A DNA stretch of 39,056 nucleotides. Source: a virus. The position numbers and the translations under genes were made by a program. Each line of letters starts with the position of its first letter. Within the stretch, counting starts at the first letter, position 1. Shown here in pieces: positions 29,884 to 39,056 of the stretch. The notes beneath the pieces were generated by a model. The model had not been told where the DNA came from. It did not search any database and was given only the letters and a program-made list of their open reading frames with translations. The DNA is taken from IMG/VR virus record IMGVR_UViG_2585428088_000002, positions 64,395 through 103,450 of that record; one strand, given 5' to 3'.

Positions 29884-30315
29884 ATGATTGAGTATACTCA
29901 AATAGAGCTGCGCATCATGGCTTTGTTTTCAGCCATAGGCGCAGCGTTTTCCTTTCTTGTCGGCGGTGTCGACAAGTTGATTACGGCACTTCTTATTTTT
30001 GTTGTGATTGATTATGTGACCGGGTTGATCGCTGCGTGGAAGACGGCAACGCTTGACAGCAAAAAGGGCTTTGAAGGGATAAAACGCAAAATCGTTATGC
30101 TGGTGATCGTTATTATGGCTCACTGGATTGATGCGAGCATCTTTGGCAGCAGCACCTGCCGGTCCATGGTGATCTTTGCGTATCTGGGCAATGAAGGCTT
30201 GAGCATTATTGAAAACTTGGACCGTATGGGGTATAGCGAATATATTCCCGTTTTTATCCGGGAGAAGCTGGTGCAGTTAAGAAGTGAAAAGGAGTCTCTC
30301 CGAAAAGAACCATAG
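29884..30315 (+). CDS. Holin (phage holin 4/TcdE-like)
   Basis: GG.D..I.ALL..V.IDYVTG, S.KGF.GI.RK, NEGLSIIEN; three hydrophobic segments. Confidence 0.92.
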   Translation: MIEYTQIELRIMALFSAIGAAFSFLVGGVDKLITALLIFVVIDYVTGLIAAWKTATLDSKKGFEGIKRKIVMLVIVIMAHWIDASIFGSSTCRSMVIFAYLGNEGLSIIENLDRMGYSEYIPVFIREKLVQLRSEKESLRKEP

Positions 30316-30416: not shown

Positions 30417-31472
30417 GTGAGAACCTTTGATTACGGAACAATAAAGCAAGAGCTTTTTACACCGGAAATAGTTAATCTTCTTTCCGCCATACATGAGTAT
30501 AAAGGTAAGCAGGAGCTGTTCATCGAAGCGCAGCCAGACATACTGAAAGCCATGCTGGAGGTTGCGAAGATACAAAGTACAGGAGCTTCAAACCGGATCG
30601 AGGGAATCTACACATCCGAAGCACGCTTAACGGAACTGGTTAAAAACAAGGCTGAGCCAAGAAACCGGAACGAGCAGGAAATTGCCGGCTATCGGGAAGT
30701 GCTTAATACCATTCATGAAAGCTACGAATATATTGTTCCTCGCTCCAGCGTAATTTTGCAGTTGCACAGGGATCTTTACTCCTATAATCCAACTTCAATG
30801 GGCGGGCGCTATAAGAGTGCGGACAACCTTATCGAAGAAGTGGACAGCTTAGGACAGCGCAGAGTCCGGTTTCAGCCCCTCCCGGCTTATGCAACGCCGG
30901 AAGCAATGGATAGCTTATCTAATACATTTTTGAAGTCCTTGGATGCAAGCAAGGTTGACCCGCTATTACTCATCTCCATGTTCATTTTGGATTTTCTCTG
31001 CATTCATCCTTTCAGTGACGGAAACGGACGGATGAGCAGGCTGTTGACGCTTTTACTGCTTTACCGGGAAGGATATATAGTCGGAAAATACATCAGCTTT
31101 GAGATGATTATTGAAAAGACGAAGGAAGCGTATTACGACGCTTTGGAGCAGAGCTCCCAAGGTTGGCACGAGGAGAAGAACAGCTATGTTCCCTTCGTAA
31201 AGTACTACCTTGGCATTGTATTGAATGTCTATAAGGAATTTGAAAGCCGAGTGGAATATATTCGCGCCAAAGGAGTAACGAAAGCTGACCGAATCAGAAA
31301 TATTTTTGCGGGCAGGGTCGGCAAAATTACCAAGGCTGAACTTTCCGCGCTATGTCCGGATATTAGTGTGACGACGATTGAAAAAGCGTTGTCTGATTTA
31401 TTGAAGGAAGAGTGTATTCTCAAGGTAGGGACCGGACGCACAACCGCTTATATTCGGAATCAGGAGGAATAA
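30417..31472 (+). CDS. fic: Fic family protein with C-terminal winged HTH (moron)
   Basis: Catalytic HPFSDGNGRMSR; N-terminal inhibitory SNRIEG; C-terminal ITKAEL..LCPDIS..TIEKAL..L......KVG.GR. Confidence 0.93.
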   Translation: MRTFDYGTIKQELFTPEIVNLLSAIHEYKGKQELFIEAQPDILKAMLEVAKIQSTGASNRIEGIYTSEARLTELVKNKAEPRNRNEQEIAGYREVLNTIHESYEYIVPRSSVILQLHRDLYSYNPTSMGGRYKSADNLIEEVDSLGQRRVRFQPLPAYATPEAMDSLSNTFLKSLDASKVDPLLLISMFILDFLCIHPFSDGNGRMSRLLTLLLLYREGYIVGKYISFEMIIEKTKEAYYDALEQSSQGWHEEKNSYVPFVKYYLGIVLNVYKEFESRVEYIRAKGVTKADRIRNIFAGRVGKITKAELSALCPDISVTTIEKALSDLLKEECILKVGTGRTTAYIRNQEE

Positions 31473-31475
31473 AGA

Positions 31476-31529
31476 ATCTGCATATTGAAATTGATTTCTG
31501 CATATTTTGATGGGCTGATGATGCAGAAA
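31476..31529 (+). repeat. Right 54-bp fic-flanking site
   Basis: ATCTGCATATTG-N7-TTTCTGCATA-N16-ATGCAGAAA, same spacing as the left copy. Confidence 0.85.
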
Positions 31530-31540
31530 AAATTATTAGT

Positions 31541-31570
31541 AAGGAACTTCAAACATGAGGTTCCTTTTTT
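31541..31570 (+). terminator. Terminator after fic
   Basis: AAGGAACTTCA-aaca-TGAGGTTCCTT-TTTT. Confidence 0.75.
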
Positions 31571-31639: not shown

Positions 31640-32224
31640 ATGAGAATAGTCATTGATCCGGGCCATGCGGGCCGAAACATTGATCCCGGCGCAGTTCATG
31701 CGGCAACAGGCTTGCAGGAGGCGGATGTCGCGCTGATAATTTCGCGGCAAGTAGCAAGATATCTGCTTAATGTAGGGTATGCGGTGAAACTAACTCGAAC
31801 CGAATGGGAACAAGAAGAAACGGATGATCTAAGCTATCGGACAGTTCTGGCGAATGACTGGGGCGCCGATATTTTTATTTCTCTTCATTGCAATAGCGCG
31901 GCGAATCAGAGCGCGGAAGGCTATGAGGTTTGGACTTCGCCGGGAAATACACTCGGTGACAAGCTTGCCACATGCATATATGGGCAAATTGCCGCCGAGT
32001 TTCCCAACCGGGCAGGAAGGACGGATTACTCTGACGGTGATCCCGATAAGGAGTCGCGCTTCTATGTATTGGTCTATACCGACGCGCCTGCCTGCTTGGT
32101 GGAAATGGCGTTTATTTCAAATGATGAGGAAGCGGCCTTGTTGGCAAACGCCGCGTGGCGGGACCAGTATGCGAGGGCAATTGCGCGGGGAGTGACTGAT
32201 TACACAGCGACGCTGGGGGGATGA
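31640..32224 (+). CDS. Endolysin, N-acetylmuramoyl-L-alanine amidase (Amidase_3), no cell-wall-binding domain
   Basis: IDPGHAG..DPGA...E, FISLHCNS, ACLVEMAFISN. Confidence 0.93.
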   Translation: MRIVIDPGHAGRNIDPGAVHAATGLQEADVALIISRQVARYLLNVGYAVKLTRTEWEQEETDDLSYRTVLANDWGADIFISLHCNSAANQSAEGYEVWTSPGNTLGDKLATCIYGQIAAEFPNRAGRTDYSDGDPDKESRFYVLVYTDAPACLVEMAFISNDEEAALLANAAWRDQYARAIARGVTDYTATLGG

Positions 32225-32227
32225 GGC

Positions 32228-32857
32228 ATGATCCAGGTATTCCAAACTTGGGGAGCAGCCTTTAAGCAAAATAAGTGGCTGATAATGCTCGTTGTTTTCT
32301 TCCTATTCATAAGCGCAATGCTTATCTGGCTTTGGCAGCGTGTCCAACAAGCAGAGGAAAAGAACCGACAGGCCGTTGTGCTGCAGCAGGAGCAGCTTGA
32401 GAAGACTCAGGCGTTAAGCAAAGCGCTTCATATCTCACAGATGAACGCTAAGGAACTGCAGGCGGCTTATGACAAACTGAAAACTAAGCCGCCTGCTGCC
32501 AGTTTTACCGTAAAAGCGCCTTCGTTAGAGGTTGCGGCTGAACAGGTGGCGGAGCGGATCAACAAGCAGGATGCCGCCTTGCCGCCTGCCGCGCTGGAAA
32601 AGACCGACCGGACGGCTGTGGTCAAAAACGATAAGGACTACAAGGTGGACGTGTTGAAAATTAATCTGGACAAAGCTTGGGAACTTTCAACAGGGGTAGG
32701 CAGCCACCGCGGCGACGCCTATATTCCGCTCGGCGTGCAGCGAAACTACGCTCCGAATAAAGCCATGGCGGTGGAAGCGCATCTGGTGCCGGAGGATTTG
32801 GCGAGGGGAAAAATAAAGACCTCCGGCTGGGAGGTCAGGCAGGTTTGGCGGTTTTAA
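32228..32857 (+). CDS. Membrane-anchored coiled-coil protein, spanin candidate
   Basis: Follows the endolysin; N-terminal TM, Gln/Glu/Lys coiled coil, beta-strand-like C-terminus ending WRF. Confidence 0.6.
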   Translation: MIQVFQTWGAAFKQNKWLIMLVVFFLFISAMLIWLWQRVQQAEEKNRQAVVLQQEQLEKTQALSKALHISQMNAKELQAAYDKLKTKPPAASFTVKAPSLEVAAEQVAERINKQDAALPPAALEKTDRTAVVKNDKDYKVDVLKINLDKAWELSTGVGSHRGDAYIPLGVQRNYAPNKAMAVEAHLVPEDLARGKIKTSGWEVRQVWRF

Positions 32858-33357: not shown

Positions 33358-33549
33358 ATGCCAGAGAAGACAAGGCTAAACCGTAGGCTGTCCGTCTATT
33401 ATCTTTACCAGAACAACAAGCCGGTGCCGATTATCCGGCTGCAGGGAAAATGGCTCCGGAGGCTTGGCTTTGAGCCGGGCGGCAAGATTACAGTGGTTGC
33501 AAGAAAAGGCCTGTTGCTTGTCAGGCTTATTCCCGATGCCGAAGCATAG
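33358..33549 (+). CDS. symE: SymE-family type I toxin
   Basis: RRLSVYY......VPIIRLQGKWLRRLGFEPG.KITV......L; GGAGGTG RBS. Confidence 0.85.
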   Translation: MPEKTRLNRRLSVYYLYQNNKPVPIIRLQGKWLRRLGFEPGGKITVVARKGLLLVRLIPDAEA

Positions 33550-34237: not shown

Positions 34238-34267
34238 GTATGGAATTTGATAGAAAGGAGCAGGCTT

Positions 34268-35569
34268 ATGCGGGTCAGAATCATTGAACCAGTGAGTTGG
34301 GTGCAGCTAAAACGCAAACGGGTCTGTGCTTATGCCAGGGTATCTTCTGGCAGCGAAGCCCAAGGCGAGTCGCTGGAAAACCAAACCACCTATTATCGGA
34401 AGCTGATTGCAGCCAATCCGGAATATGAATATGTTGACATTTTTGCAGACTATGGAACCACCGGCACCAAGGAAGCGCGGCCGGAGTTTCAAAGGATGCT
34501 GGCTTTGGCGAGAACAAGGGAAATTGACTTAATTCTAACGAAATCCATCTCCCGTTTTGCCCGCAACACAACGCTGGTGCTGGAGACGGTCAGGGAGTTA
34601 AAGGAACTGGGGGTAGAAGTCGTTTTTGAAAAAGACAATATTTCGACCTTTACGAGGGACGGCGAGCTGATGCTTACCGTCCTCTCTTCTTTTGCCCAGG
34701 AAGAAAGCAAAAGCGCCAGTGAAAATCTCAAGTGGCGGTATCGGCGAAAATTTGAGCAAGGGGAACTGGCCCTCAATGTCACCCGGTTTTTGGGCTATGA
34801 CAAAAACAAGCACGGCGAATTGGTGATCAACCCAATTCAAGCCAAAGTGGTCGAGCGTATTTTCGCCGACTATGTCAGCGGCAAGGGAAGCTTTGTCATT
34901 GCCAGAGAACTGAACGCCGCAGGGGTTAGGACAGTGGCAGGAGGCAAGTGGCACTCCGGCACTGTGCTGAATATCCTCAAAAACGAAAAATACAAGGGCG
35001 ATGCCAAGCTGCAAAAGACCTACAGCAAGGACCATCTCAGCAAAAAGAAGTGCGTCAATCACGGCGAGGTCGAAAGCTTCTATATCGAGAATAACCATCC
35101 GCCAATCGTAAGCAGAGAAATCTGGGATGAAACACAAAGACTGATTATTTTGCGCGCTAAGGCCAAGGGCAATGTAGAAGAAACCAAAAACAAGTACCAA
35201 AACCGCTATCCGCTGACGGGGATGCTGCTGTGCAGCAAGTGCGGGGCGCCTTTGCGCCGGAGAACTTGGAACAGCAAATATTGCTGTAAAAAAGTGGTGT
35301 GGCAATGCAGCACCTATATTAAAAACGGTAAAAACGCCTGCCAGGGCACAACGATTGAAGATGATGAGATTGGCAGAGTGAATATACAAACCGAAACCGT
35401 GGTCGAGGAGGTTATGACAAATGGCAAAAAACATTACCGTTATACCAGCCAAGGCGAACCGGACAAGCCTTGCGGAAAACCTAGAGCTACAGAAAAAACG
35501 TGTAGCCGCGTACTGCCGGGTATCGACCGATCAGGAAGAGCAGTTATCAAGCTACGAAGCCCAGGTTAA
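34268..35569 (+). CDS. Large serine recombinase 1
   Basis: CAYARVSS catalytic motif, TKSISRFARN, recombinase domain NEKYKGD, Zn ribbon CSKC...WQC...C. Confidence 0.93.
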   Translation: MRVRIIEPVSWVQLKRKRVCAYARVSSGSEAQGESLENQTTYYRKLIAANPEYEYVDIFADYGTTGTKEARPEFQRMLALARTREIDLILTKSISRFARNTTLVLETVRELKELGVEVVFEKDNISTFTRDGELMLTVLSSFAQEESKSASENLKWRYRRKFEQGELALNVTRFLGYDKNKHGELVINPIQAKVVERIFADYVSGKGSFVIARELNAAGVRTVAGGKWHSGTVLNILKNEKYKGDAKLQKTYSKDHLSKKKCVNHGEVESFYIENNHPPIVSREIWDETQRLIILRAKAKGNVEETKNKYQNRYPLTGMLLCSKCGAPLRRRTWNSKYCCKKVVWQCSTYIKNGKNACQGTTIEDDEIGRVNIQTETVVEEVMTNGKKHYRYTSQGEPDKPCGKPRATEKTCSRVLPGIDRSGRAVIKLRSPG

Positions 35570-36833
35570 CTACTACACGAACTATATCGAAAAACATCCG
35601 GATTATAAATTTGCCGGCATTTATGCCGATGAGGGCATCAGCGGCACCACCACCAAAAAGCGCGAGCAGTTTAACAGGATGATTGAAGACTGCAAAGCTG
35701 GAAAAATCGATAGGATCATCACGAAATCCATCTCGCGGTTTGCCAGAAACACATTGGATACCTTGACCTATGTTCGGATGCTCAAAGAGTTAGGGATCGA
35801 AGTGTTTTTCGAGAAGGAAAATATAAGAACCCTTGACAGCAAGGGAGAGGTGCTTTTATCCATTTTAAGTTCACTTGCGCAAGACGAGTCGCGATCAATC
35901 TCGGAAAACTCGACCTGGGGCATCCGACGGCGTTTTGAGCAGGGCAAGCTGCATGTTAATCACACCAAGTTTTTGGGATATGACAAAGATAAAAACGGCA
36001 ACCTCGTTGTCAATGAAAAGCAGGCTAAAATCGTCAGACGCATTTACACAGAATTCCTTGACGGCAAAGGAGCCAACCGGATCGCGAGAGACTTGGAGTT
36101 GGGCGGCGTAGCAAACTGGAATGGCAAGGCCAAATGGTATGAAGGCAGCATCCGGAAAATGCTTACCAATGAGAAATATAAGGGCGACGCGCTGCTACAG
36201 AAAACCTACACTGTTGATTTCTTGAGCAAAAAACGGGCAGACAACAATGGCCAGGTGCCGCAGTATTATGTGGAAGATAGCCATCCAGCAATTATTGACA
36301 AAGAAATGTGGGAAGCGGTGCAGCTTGAGATGGAGCGCAGGCGGAATTTTGCTCTGCAGTATGGCATTCAGAAGCTTGAGTACGCGACAACGGACAATCC
36401 TTTTGCGGGTAGAGTCATCTGCGGCTCCTGCGGTCAGGTTTTTGGCAGGAAGGTTTGGAACTCAACTGATGACCGGTTCAGGCGGATTATCTGGCGCTGC
36501 AACGGCAAATATCCGGCGAAGGGCGAAAAGGGCTGTGAAAGCAGGCATATCGATGATGTGGTTTTATATCAGGCTTTCGTTGATGTATTTAATACGCTGG
36601 TCGAAAACAAAGAGTATTTTCTCGGTAAATGGAAAAAACTGCGGGGAAGTGACAATCCGCTTCAACGCTACAAAGCAAAACAGTTTTCCAAAATCATTGT
36701 TGAGGCAGGGCGGATCAGTAAATTTGATATTGACCTCTATTTTGCCCTGACGGAAAAAATAGAGGTATTTGGCGAGGGCAGATTGGGTGTCAGTTTGCTT
36801 GACGGTACAGAACTCGAATGCCTAATTGAATAG
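35421..36833 (+). CDS. Large serine recombinase 2
   Basis: AAYCRVST, DEGISG, TKSISRFARN, CGSC...WRC...C; GAGGAGG RBS. Confidence 0.95.
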   Translation: MAKNITVIPAKANRTSLAENLELQKKRVAAYCRVSTDQEEQLSSYEAQVNYYTNYIEKHPDYKFAGIYADEGISGTTTKKREQFNRMIEDCKAGKIDRIITKSISRFARNTLDTLTYVRMLKELGIEVFFEKENIRTLDSKGEVLLSILSSLAQDESRSISENSTWGIRRRFEQGKLHVNHTKFLGYDKDKNGNLVVNEKQAKIVRRIYTEFLDGKGANRIARDLELGGVANWNGKAKWYEGSIRKMLTNEKYKGDALLQKTYTVDFLSKKRADNNGQVPQYYVEDSHPAIIDKEMWEAVQLEMERRRNFALQYGIQKLEYATTDNPFAGRVICGSCGQVFGRKVWNSTDDRFRRIIWRCNGKYPAKGEKGCESRHIDDVVLYQAFVDVFNTLVENKEYFLGKWKKLRGSDNPLQRYKAKQFSKIIVEAGRISKFDIDLYFALTEKIEVFGEGRLGVSLLDGTELECLIE

Positions 36834-36839
36834 AAGCAA

Positions 36840-36886
36840 AAAAAGGCCAGTTGGGGTTAGATTTATCACCTTGACCGGCTTTTTTG
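36840..36886 (+). terminator. Bidirectional-type terminator after the recombinases
   Basis: A-run, GGCCAGTTGGGGT...ACCTTGACCGGCT, T-run. Confidence 0.6.
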
Positions 36887-36980
36887 TCATATTTAAACAG
36901 ATTTATGGAATATTTTGTAGATGATTATTTGTGTGAATTGTATAATGAAGTTAATATTGGAAATAGTCGGAGGTGAGAAA

Positions 36981-37307
36981 GTGGACAAGTACTCGGATGA
37001 TGAAATAAGGAGTTGCAAGAAAATCACATTACAAATCGCGGCGGGCTATTTGGGGATTTCTCCCTTAGCGGTGGGCCTTGGCATGAGAAATGATTTGTTG
37101 CCGATAGGTTTTGCCATTAAACATGAGGATCGATATTCTGAAAGCTGGGGCTATCATATTATTGATGAGCGGCTGATAGCATATAAGCATGGGAAAATAA
37201 CGAACATTCAGGTGCAAAACATTGAGAAAAACCTGGAAACGATTATTTCTAAGTTTGAGGAGATGAAAAAAGACCTGCTTTTTATATTAAGCGAAAGCGC
37301 GGAGTAG
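36981..37307 (+). CDS. Small putative DNA-binding protein
   Basis: GGAGGTG RBS and GTG start; TATAAT upstream; ITLQIAAGYLGIS HTH-like segment and C-terminal coiled coil. Confidence 0.65.
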   Translation: MDKYSDDEIRSCKKITLQIAAGYLGISPLAVGLGMRNDLLPIGFAIKHEDRYSESWGYHIIDERLIAYKHGKITNIQVQNIEKNLETIISKFEEMKKDLLFILSESAE

Positions 37308-37418
37308 GCGATATACGACTTTTTGAATACGCGTTTTCGCTTTCATGGGATAATGACTACGTGCATGGCGATTTGCAGCAGTACCTACACTCCATACTGG
37401 ACAAAAGGGGGAAGGATA

Positions 37419-39056
37419 TTGACTGAGGAGCAAGCTTCTAAAATAACCAGAGAGCAGCTTTATAATGAAATTTGGGAAATATCTGTAGCCGGCGTCGCGA
37501 AAAAGTATAACGCTAACTATAATGATCTGTTGAAATTGTGCAAAGAAGCAGATGTTCCGGTTCCTCCCTCGGGATACTGGGTGAAATTACAGTATGGAAA
37601 GCCAGTTGTGCAGCTGCCGCTCCCGGAATCCACTATCGCTGAAGTAACGCTTCCTGGCAACGACAAGCCGAAACGCATACGCAAGGCTGTTGCAGAAAAA
37701 AGTGTTGAAAAAGCTTTGAATCATGAAGACGCGCCGGAAAAAACGCCGGAAGATGACAGTGGCAACAACTCTGGCGATGAAACTGGGGATAATTTTGACG
37801 ATGCTGAAGACGATTATGTTTCTTATTGGGGTGTGAGCGGCAAGCACAATACCTATAAACGAGAAAAATTGTACAAAGAGGTTTGGGCCAACCCGGTTGT
37901 TAAAGTTGCTGCGCAATATGGAGTATCAGACGTTGCGATTCATAAAATTTGCAAAAAGCTAAATGTTCCTACCCCTCCGTTAGGATATTGGGCAAAAGTT
38001 AACGCCGGAGCGAAAGTGGCAAAAACTCCCCTGCCCAAAACTAATGGGCCTACGCAGATTACTGGGGCAAAAACTTTTGAGGGAGTCAAGGAAAAGATTG
38101 CTGATCCTGCAAAACAACCGCTCGAATTTCTATCAGATACCGAAAGGGAAAAGGTACTAAGCGCTGTCAAGGAAATCGAGATGCCTGCTGAAAATGCTCA
38201 ACTGCATAAAAAAATAGCTGCCTACAGGGCTGTGGTCAGAGAGTGGAACCAAAAAGACAGGAAATCTGAAGGGGCGCAAAGGAAAAGGGATTATAATTAC
38301 AGTCCTCCCTTTTTGGCCGGAGTGATTTCCAATGAGTCGCTTCCGCGCGTGTACCGGATACTTGACGCTTTATTTCGCCATGTTGAAAAGCTCGGCGGAT
38401 CGGTCAATGATGACCTTTCGCTTCGTGTCAGGAATGAACATGTCCGTATTGAAATTGCTGAGGGCCAGGATAAGGTCGAGCATGTAATTACAAAACAGGA
38501 AGCGCAAGCCCTTATTAAGTATAGAGATGAGAAACGTCGTAGCTCATGGGCATCAGAGCCGCAGATCCGCAAATATGACTATGTGTTCAACGGAAGGCTT
38601 AGAATAAACATTCGGGAGAGTCGATATTTCAGAGATACGGATAAAATTAATGTTGAATCTCGGCTTGGCGAAATGTTAATAGAGTTTTATGAGGAATCTG
38701 AAGCGGTTCGCCTTGACCGAGAAGCGAAAGAAGAGGAAGCTCGCAAAAAGGCAGAAGCTGAACGTCGGAAGGAAGAACGGCGGAAAAAATACAATGAGGA
38801 AGTTGAGCGAACAATAGCACTGGAAAACGCCGCACTCGACTATGCGACTGCGTGTAGAATCCGCGCTTATGTTAAGGCTGTTGAAACTTCCTGTGGCCAA
38901 GATGGATTGGATGAGGAAACGGCCGCATGGGTTGACTGGGCGACGAAAAAAGCCGATTGGTTTGATCCAACGGTGGCCAGAGATGACGAATTGTTTGGAG
39001 AACGCGAACACGAAAAAAGTTCTAGTGAGAAGGCGCTTAAAGAAATTTGGCGTTAG
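37419..39056 (+). CDS. Hypothetical protein with a duplicated HTH-like domain and C-terminal coiled coil
   Basis: TTG start after AAGGGGGAAGG; two copies of RE.LY.E.W......VA..Y..........CK...VP.PP.GYW. Confidence 0.8.
   Translation: MTEEQASKITREQLYNEIWEISVAGVAKKYNANYNDLLKLCKEADVPVPPSGYWVKLQYGKPVVQLPLPESTIAEVTLPGNDKPKRIRKAVAEKSVEKALNHEDAPEKTPEDDSGNNSGDETGDNFDDAEDDYVSYWGVSGKHNTYKREKLYKEVWANPVVKVAAQYGVSDVAIHKICKKLNVPTPPLGYWAKVNAGAKVAKTPLPKTNGPTQITGAKTFEGVKEKIADPAKQPLEFLSDTEREKVLSAVKEIEMPAENAQLHKKIAAYRAVVREWNQKDRKSEGAQRKRDYNYSPPFLAGVISNESLPRVYRILDALFRHVEKLGGSVNDDLSLRVRNEHVRIEIAEGQDKVEHVITKQEAQALIKYRDEKRRSSWASEPQIRKYDYVFNGRLRINIRESRYFRDTDKINVESRLGEMLIEFYEESEAVRLDREAKEEEARKKAEAERRKEERRKKYNEEVERTIALENAALDYATACRIRAYVKAVETSCGQDGLDEETAAWVDWATKKADWFDPTVARDDELFGEREHEKSSSEKALKEIWR

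Follow-up and report, generated by a model that had tools for sequence, protein, structure and literature searches.

All known spanins reach the outer membrane by way of a lipoprotein (PMC6139136). The u-spanin gp11 of phage T1 is one polypeptide, encoded in the lysis cassette and proposed to be anchored in both membranes, with an N-terminal lipoprotein signal (outer membrane), a C-terminal transmembrane (TM) segment (inner membrane) and a beta-rich part between these anchors (Kongari et al. 2018, PMC6139136). The i-spanin Rz of the lambda Rz/Rz1 pair has a type-II N-terminal TM segment, a helix-rich membrane-proximal region and an Rz1-binding end, and its gene lies right after that for the endolysin. 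A non-spanin form of outer-membrane disruption has been described for disruptin (phiKT gp28), found in a phage that has no canonical spanins (bioRxiv 10.1101/515445). On the spanins of Negativicutes phages, we found no literature.

In hosts of this class, the Lol-sorted lipoprotein route appears closed. LolA and LolB were found in no Negativicute (Antunes et al., PMC5007114), and Veillonella parvula has no known outer-membrane lipoproteins or Lol homologues (Grasekamp et al., PMC10665443). That a host protein can bridge the envelope without a lipoprotein is suggested by the precedent of V. parvula MlaD, which combines an N-terminal inner-membrane TM segment with a C-terminal outer-membrane beta-barrel, as supported by membrane fractionation (PMC10665443).

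Here, we describe a gene in a 39,056-nucleotide stretch of viral DNA (the window) whose product we propose to be an inner-membrane-tethered, beta-anchored outer-membrane disruptor of Negativicutes phages, that is, a spanin analogue that works without Lol; we judge the case for this reading to be about evenly balanced. Like T1 gp11, the candidate protein is a single polypeptide encoded in a lysis cassette, with a beta-rich part and proposed anchors in both membranes. Its topology is the opposite, with a TM helix at the N terminus, no Cys and a beta module at the C terminus, and no sequence similarity between the two was found. With lambda Rz it shares the type-II N-terminal TM helix, the helix-rich membrane-proximal region and the position of its gene, whereas it has no o-spanin gene beside it, no PF03245 match and no long coiled coil, and ends in a membrane-like beta module where Rz ends in its Rz1-binding end. 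MlaD, a Negativicutes protein with the layout that we propose for the candidate, differs in that it is not phage-encoded and serves host lipid transport; it contains an MCE domain, its barrel has 10 strands per chain and it plays no part in lysis, and no homology links the two. As an anchored protein of 209 aa with a beta module, the candidate is also unlike disruptin, which is reportedly a small cationic amphipathic helical peptide with no membrane anchor.

Position of the candidate gene in lysis cassettes

The candidate gene closes a cassette that also encodes a holin, a Fic-domain protein and an endolysin (Table 1). The Amidase_3 domain of the endolysin spans residues 3-186 of 194, and a cell-wall-binding domain is absent. 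As the initial annotation had noted, the candidate gene follows directly, its ATG standing 3 nt past the endolysin TGA (32222-32224). The G-run that could serve as its ribosome-binding site lies inside the endolysin gene, which suggests that translation of the two genes may be coupled.

Table 1. Features of the lysis cassette and of the encoded candidate protein, in window coordinates
Feature	Position	Strand	Basis
Holin, same lysis cassette	29884..30315	+	Pfam Phage_holin_4_1, E 8.7e-35; phrog_199 holin
Fic-domain gene with C-terminal DIP2311-like wHTH, between holin and endolysin	30417-31566 (including hairpin)		
Endolysin, single-domain N-acetylmuramoyl-L-alanine amidase	31640..32224	+	Pfam Amidase_3, E 2e-42; phrog_435 endolysin
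G-run, possible ribosome-binding site of the candidate gene, within the endolysin 3' end	32215..32220	+	Sequence reading
Candidate outer-membrane disruptor gene, 209 aa	32228..32857	+	ORF and translation; phrog_10797, E 3.6e-70
Predicted N-terminal transmembrane anchor, residues 17-36	32276..32335	+	Hydropathy; AlphaFold2 helix
Predicted periplasmic alpha/beta region, residues 47-147	32366..32668	+	AlphaFold2 pLDDT >=94; alignment A2 consensus
Predicted C-terminal beta module, residues 148-209	32669..32854	+	AlphaFold2 strands; column alternation; YadA/Hia anchor matches

The surrounding DNA holds several other elements. A terminator-like hairpin (31541-31566) follows the Fic gene, so that the endolysin and candidate genes would need either read-through or a promoter of their own. 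Just 3' of the cassette and ahead of the recombinase genes lies a SymE-type type-I toxin gene (33358-33549; Pfam E 3.5e-11). The window then runs into two or three large serine recombinase genes in tandem (34247-39056), located at 34247-35569, 35421-36833 and probably from 37323 onward, the first two of which share ~150 nt. Their domains are Resolvase, Recombinase and Zn_ribbon_recom, assigned by Pfam in the first gene and judged from the sequence in the others.

The arrangement recurs among relatives. The gene and its predecessor are immediate neighbours in 19 further genomes as well, being either 3 nt apart or overlapping by 1-31 nt. The upstream hydrolases tested were Amidase_3, Amidase_2, GH25 and VgrG3-like_C, which are unrelated families and all single-domain proteins, and an endolysin of one of these four types ends <=500 nt upstream in 40 of 51 named Negativicutes loci (the 51 being those with enough upstream DNA among 57 from named genomes). 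The expected placement of the family in lysis cassettes was thus recovered behind four unrelated kinds of endolysin. The host genome itself carries five paralogues, each in a separate prophage-like region.

A further group of family members, in which the C-terminal module stands behind a short linker, is found in T7-like prophages. There, the gene comes after a T7-type large terminase gene and a 59-aa gene and is followed by an excisionase gene (HTH_17). The 59-aa product, a TM protein, is a possible holin. In phiKMV-like podoviruses, the lysis cassette occupies this same spot, at the right end of the genome. Examples of the short-linker arrangement include a paralogue in the host genome (G000 contig C55:4537-5079; L003:1471-2046) and the loci L135 and L137, all in T7-like temperate podovirus elements of Negativicutes. 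It is from the position of the gene that we infer a part for the candidate protein in lysis, and because the association extends over four unrelated endolysin families and two phage types, that part would be independent of any particular endolysin.

Predicted architecture of the candidate protein

The candidate protein (P0001) contains no Cys and therefore no lipobox. Its one strongly hydrophobic segment (residues 17-36; Kyte-Doolittle 2.75 over 19 residues) is the sole such helix in the protein, is preceded by K13 and K16, and falls within an AlphaFold2 helix of residues 16-46. The N-terminal TM helix without a lipobox Cys that had been read from the sequence at the outset is thus well supported. 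Two other readings of this segment, a SAR domain and a cleavable signal, were set aside, the segment being too hydrophobic and an AxA site not being conserved. Nor does the protein have a Sec signal peptide; its N terminus is instead a stable TM anchor of 20 residues in which a cleavage site is not conserved, and a passenger-like region is absent.

With an alignment of 105 sequences, AlphaFold2 modeled the full-length protein at a mean pLDDT of 94.3 and a pTM of 0.80, and the same elements were obtained after removal of the TM helix (residues 44-209; pLDDT 96.6, pTM 0.82). The predicted periplasmic region carries the motifs LPPxALEKTDRT and KVDVYKINL in the A2 consensus. It is modeled as a strand (49-53), a series of helices (54-58, 60-67, 71-84, 100-112 and 120-123) and a hairpin of strands 128-134 and 139-145 (span 128-145). 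The initial annotation had described a long coiled coil here; this does not stand, since the models, at pLDDT 94-97, break the region into helices of 5-14 residues, with strands and a long loop between them.

The rest of the chain is predicted to form four long strands (151-160, 163-175, 178-186 and 198-207), which match all four segments first singled out as amphipathic strands, and F209 is the last residue, as had also been noted. W151, Y174 and W207/F209 are clustered at one end of this module. As modeled in the monomer, each protein contributes four module strands. AlphaFold2 models residues 44-209 by themselves as one confident unit, so that the periplasmic helices may cover the apolar face of the sheet, as in a soluble domain; this is the chief weakness of the membrane-anchor reading.

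We also compared the locus with the defining traits of spanins. In 20 loci, no conserved lipobox ORF was detected, whether embedded, overlapping or adjacent, in agreement with the earlier remark that an o-spanin lipoprotein gene was not evident. One embedded ORF was considered as an o-spanin and rejected: a GTG-started stretch of 41 codons in the +2 frame (32275-32400) that encodes a lipobox-like LAAC. Of 9 close homologues, 8 have Y, S, R or F in place of its Cys, and some have lost the start codon, which marks it as a chance ORF. Of the i-spanin traits, an N-terminal TM helix and a periplasmic C-terminal part are predicted for P0001, and long coiled-coil periplasmic helices are absent from the AlphaFold2 models. 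PF03245 (Phage_lysis) matched neither P0001 nor any other part of the genome, and the Rz-like spanin profile phrog_1152 gave a weak, non-significant match to P0001 (E 0.064). Both traits of u-spanins, a lipobox Cys near the N terminus and a C-terminal TM helix, are absent; the C terminus of P0001 is beta.

Weak structural resemblance of the C-terminal module to autotransporter anchors

Foldseek returned no significant match in the PDB for the whole chain. For the last 60 residues, it found the anchors of Hia and YadA at a probability of 0.92-0.98 and an rmsd of 3.2-3.8 A, with Hia at 3.3 A over 60 residues and a probability of 0.98. An aligner independent of Foldseek also returned AtaA (Z 5.2), Hia (4.7) and YadA (4.5), along with KdgM, OmpW, OprF, OmpA, designed membrane barrels and gasdermin pores; every one of these is tied, at Z 4.5-5.5, with unrelated sheets such as WD40 blades, hot-dog folds and colicin-M domains. 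In ESM Atlas and BFVD, proteins with YadA_anchor were again recovered after members of the family itself. The YadA, Hia and AtaA anchors are thus the named match to the module that recurs in three libraries (PDB, ESM Atlas and BFVD), at Z <=5.5. Structure matches were confined to residues 148-209, with none to the periplasmic region 47-147.

Sequence comparisons gave a different picture of the YadA-type resemblance. Pfam searches with P0001 and 105 members produced no significant hit, including to YadA_anchor, OMP or spanin families, and PF03895 matched 0 of the 105 members at E <=1. Profile alignment against 30 anchors from Negativicutes (hhalign) reached a probability of 31% (P 5e-4) in an inconsistent register, and for module subfamily B (described below) it found nothing. 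A profile search of PDB sequences returned only noise, such as ribosome recycling factor (E 0.25) and dUTPase (E 2.4). Of the YadA-type resemblance proposed at the outset, what holds is its recurrence in three structure libraries; the match scores are weak, and the PF03895 and hhalign comparisons do not establish sequence homology. We consider the modeled geometry of the module to be compatible with, but not specific to, an anchor of the trimeric-autotransporter type.

The likeness to YadA_anchor proteins (PF03895; Hia, YadA and AtaA) consists of four long C-terminal strands, of similar geometry as modeled (rmsd 3.0-3.3 A over 55-60 residues), and a Gly-rich first strand, and the host itself encodes such anchors. 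Unlike these proteins, the candidate has no Pfam match, Sec signal, passenger or pore-filling helix, and its N terminus is predicted to stay in the inner membrane, which would leave the rest of the chain in the periplasm rather than exposed at the cell surface. In the trimeric autotransporters of Negativicutes (L038 to L068), the four-strand YadA_anchor is not C-terminal; 30-40 or more residues lie beyond it, so the beta-signal of these host proteins is internal. Architectures combining SLH with YadA_anchor are also seen among Negativicutes proteins.

Family-wide conservation and module subtypes

P0001 is a member of phrog_10797, annotated in PHROGs as "unknown function", with residues 2-201 aligned to positions 3-194 of the 194-position profile. 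An exhaustive HMMER search extended the family to 183 clusters at 50% identity, and nearly all members have 165-240 aa and a common plan. The last residue is F or W in 102 of 120 full-length cluster representatives (85%), compared with 4.9% of host ORFs of >=150 aa. The features of the family, including this terminal excess, exceed chance.

Several types of module can be distinguished, every one of which has four strands in ~45-65 aa. Subfamily A, with 46 cluster representatives, follows the pattern W-E-x-G-x-G-x-G-x-H ... Y-I-P-V-x-x-Q-R-N-Y ... E-x-H ... G-G-E-V-x-W-K-x-x-F. Subfamily B (29 representatives) is characterized by H-K-I-K-A-G ... G-Y-Q-A-G-R-x-E-G-L-x-H-F ... V-M-Y-T-V-K-E-W, and there are further, smaller types (e.g., ...GYEVGVGYVIRF). 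In subfamily A, apolar and polar residues alternate strictly along strands of 9-13 residues, and there is little or no variation at W151 (45 of 46), G156, G158, Y165, P167 (45 of 46), R172 and G200. Of the two faces, the polar one is better conserved: its positions have an entropy of 1.13 bits, compared with 2.08 bits at apolar mid-strand positions, where V, I and L interchange (Mann-Whitney p = 0.0014). Such a pattern is expected of a small barrel in a membrane, where polar residues pack the lumen and the exterior faces lipid, and is the reverse of that usual in soluble proteins; it is suggestive only, and a conserved binding surface could equally yield conservation of the polar face. Apolar residues at -3, -5 and -7 from the C terminus are present in subfamily A and in the type ending in ...GYVIRF, whereas in subfamily B (...YTVKEW) the final ...KEW does not keep to the phase of the canonical beta-signal.

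Module and periplasmic region occur in several combinations. In ~20 clusters, and in a single paralogue of this genome (contig C55), the same 55-aa module is preceded by an unrelated linker rich in T, S, P and K; the linker region carries the motif PDLVV..Y.A.ING..VEVPV. Conversely, the region with LPPxALEKTDRT and KVDVYKINL is paired with module types A, B and C. As one module is shared by unrelated regions and one region by several modules, the module behaves as an autonomous unit. The short-linker members have no helices able to cover its apolar face.

Host range and host envelope

The A1 profile matched 137 of 401 sampled genomes of Negativicutes, the class of the host, or about one third at E <= 0.001, some of the matches being weak or partial. 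At E <=1e-5, it matched 0 of 388 genomes that belong to the phylum but not to this class, so the restriction to diderm Firmicutes on which the initial annotation had staked its reading survived this comparison. No phrog_10797 matches were obtained in 14 control genomes. A motif scan based on alignment A3, with one genome for each of 185,579 species, confirmed 62 loci, essentially only in Negativicutes: Veillonella, Megasphaera, Selenomonas, Acidaminococcus, Centipeda, Sporomusaceae and a few unclassified metagenome-assembled genomes (MAGs). The exceptions are three MAG contigs labeled Lachnospiraceae or Streptococcus. One of these is 69% identical to the first sequence of the query alignment, and the Veillonella loci are 64-68% identical to it; because the off-label contig lies at the level of the Veillonella loci, we suspect that these contigs are mis-binned. 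Among named homologues, the closest is that of the Negativicute Anaeroselena agilis, and V. parvula, which is genetically tractable, carries a family member. Searching 50,697 GenBank phage records by tblastn with three members gave no match.

The envelope of these hosts offers a possible reason for a beta-anchor. The host genome contains two Omp85 genes, the products of which both end in F, and neither a LolA match nor an Rz (PF03245) match. With Omp85 present and LolA absent, lipoprotein spanins look unworkable in this host.

Proposed mode of action and alternatives

We propose that the uncleaved N-terminal helix would hold the candidate in the inner membrane with its N terminus inside, and that ~110 periplasmic residues would link this helix to the C-terminal module. 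The four amphipathic strands in the C-terminal 55-60 residues would contribute to a homo-oligomeric beta-barrel in the outer membrane, into which they would most likely be inserted by Omp85/BAM of the host under the direction of the C-terminal aromatic residue. After the endolysin has cleared the peptidoglycan away, the doubly anchored protein would be free to move, and it could then draw the two membranes together or destabilize the outer membrane in the manner of a spanin. In this scheme, the beta-anchor would take the place of the lipoprotein anchor of spanins because the hosts have no Lol pathway. The layout of the protein, its conservation across the family, the place of its gene in lysis cassettes and its host range are shown by the analyses above, and entry into the outer membrane, the oligomeric state, dependence on BAM and the part in lysis are inferred. 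In the compact modeled fold, ~110 residues may be too short to span the periplasm. The scheme is further weakened by the out-of-phase terminus of subfamily B, by the ties of the fold matches with soluble sheets and by P0187 (below), which carries the module and has no signal sequence.

Taken further, the data raise the prospect of a third spanin architecture. Such a protein would be unimolecular, with a portable 55-aa four-strand module that oligomerizes into a BAM-assembled barrel and evolved for lack of Lol, and this module would have been joined to >=2 unrelated periplasmic regions in siphovirus-like and T7-like prophages. This broader proposal is tentative, and we incline slightly against its being correct in full.

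The chief rival, which we think unlikely, treats the candidate as a type-II protein of the inner membrane in which everything outside the cytoplasm folds as a soluble alpha/beta domain, possibly an oligomeric one. The strands would then pack with their apolar side against the helices or inside a beta-prism-like trimer, and the polar face would bind LPS, OmpM or polyamine-modified peptidoglycan, allowing a role in lysis without insertion into the outer membrane. That residues 44-209 are modeled as a confident unit in the absence of the TM helix (pLDDT 96.6, pTM 0.82) fits such a domain, as do the many tied fold matches that are soluble sheets, the presence of the module in a signal-less, tail-like protein (P0187, below) and the strong conservation of the polar face, as expected of a binding surface. 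A soluble domain is harder to reconcile with the ~20 clusters and one paralogue that have a hydrophilic T/S/P/K-rich linker and no covering helices. Invariant Gly residues on the polar face combined with interchangeable apolar V, I and L would be unusual for a soluble sheet, and the strict terminal F/W is left unexplained. The compact AlphaFold2 fold and the membrane-like strand pattern could both be accommodated by a self-inserting beta-pore former, which would adopt a pre-pore fold in the periplasm and, after loss of the peptidoglycan, oligomerize its hairpins into the outer membrane without BAM, as gasdermins or beta-toxins do; gasdermin and complement pores and de novo membrane barrels are among the tied fold matches. 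We nevertheless regard this as improbable, since conservation of an aromatic residue at the C terminus typifies BAM substrates and not pore-forming toxins, the short-linker members have no domain to hold a pre-pore state, and no homology to pore-former families was found in Pfam or PDB profile searches.

It is also conceivable that the protein is no disruptor at all and acts as an antiholin-like regulator of lysis timing, excludes superinfecting phages or is a moron product whose gene simply comes last in the late operon. Its function is read from gene position only, the PHROGs label is "unknown function", and there are other morons in the cassette (Fic and SymE). We give such roles little credence: the tight coupling to the preceding lysis gene is kept across four endolysin families and two phage types, and none of these roles would explain the restriction to diderm hosts. 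For an antiholin in particular, the holin is of the Phage_holin_4_1 type, which, to our knowledge, is expected to have no large periplasmic domain for RI-like antiholin binding. Finally, the N-terminal TM helix, the helix-rich membrane-proximal region and the non-significant phrog_1152 match (E 0.064) would be consistent with an i-spanin-like half whose outer-membrane partner is a host protein or an unrecognized phage protein encoded elsewhere. This seems very improbable to us, given that a search for embedded, overlapping or adjacent lipoprotein ORFs turned up none that is conserved, that the genome has no PF03245 match, that no long coiled coil is predicted and that Lol was not found in the host.

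How phages of diderm Firmicutes breach the outer membrane becomes a directly testable question with a widespread candidate gene at hand. If the reading that we find most economical, an inner-membrane-tethered, beta-anchored disruptor, is correct, the family would represent a new class in the phage lysis toolkit and would serve annotators as a marker by which to recognize lysis cassettes in Negativicutes phages. It would also provide a very small natural outer-membrane anchor with which to study the outer-membrane assembly of proteins that remain tethered to the inner membrane.

Module-like sequences in other proteins

Two metagenomic proteins carry sequences related to the module. P0187 (contig L069:2006-3373) is a signal-less protein of 455 aa that starts with a CBM96 domain, contains short repeats (phrog_11333) and has at its C terminus the same TDKT-hairpin and four-strand module (...GGELQWKVHF). 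It is known from a single contig, on which its gene lies downstream of one for an RCC1-like repeat protein. The module may therefore be used in a virion or tail protein too, or the gene may be chimeric. P0241 (contig L070:660-5516), a protein of 1618 aa encoded in a putative tail-fibre region, has 11 repeats of the form W-T-x-V-G-Y-x-T-G-D-A-Y-x-P-V-x-V-Q, and these match, at E 1.3e-7, the hairpin with which the module begins (GxGxHxGDAYIPxxVQ); this likeness could reflect a common hairpin origin or convergence. In a comparison by ESM features, the look-alikes of the candidate were DUF6549 and DUF6808, with a score of 0.89.
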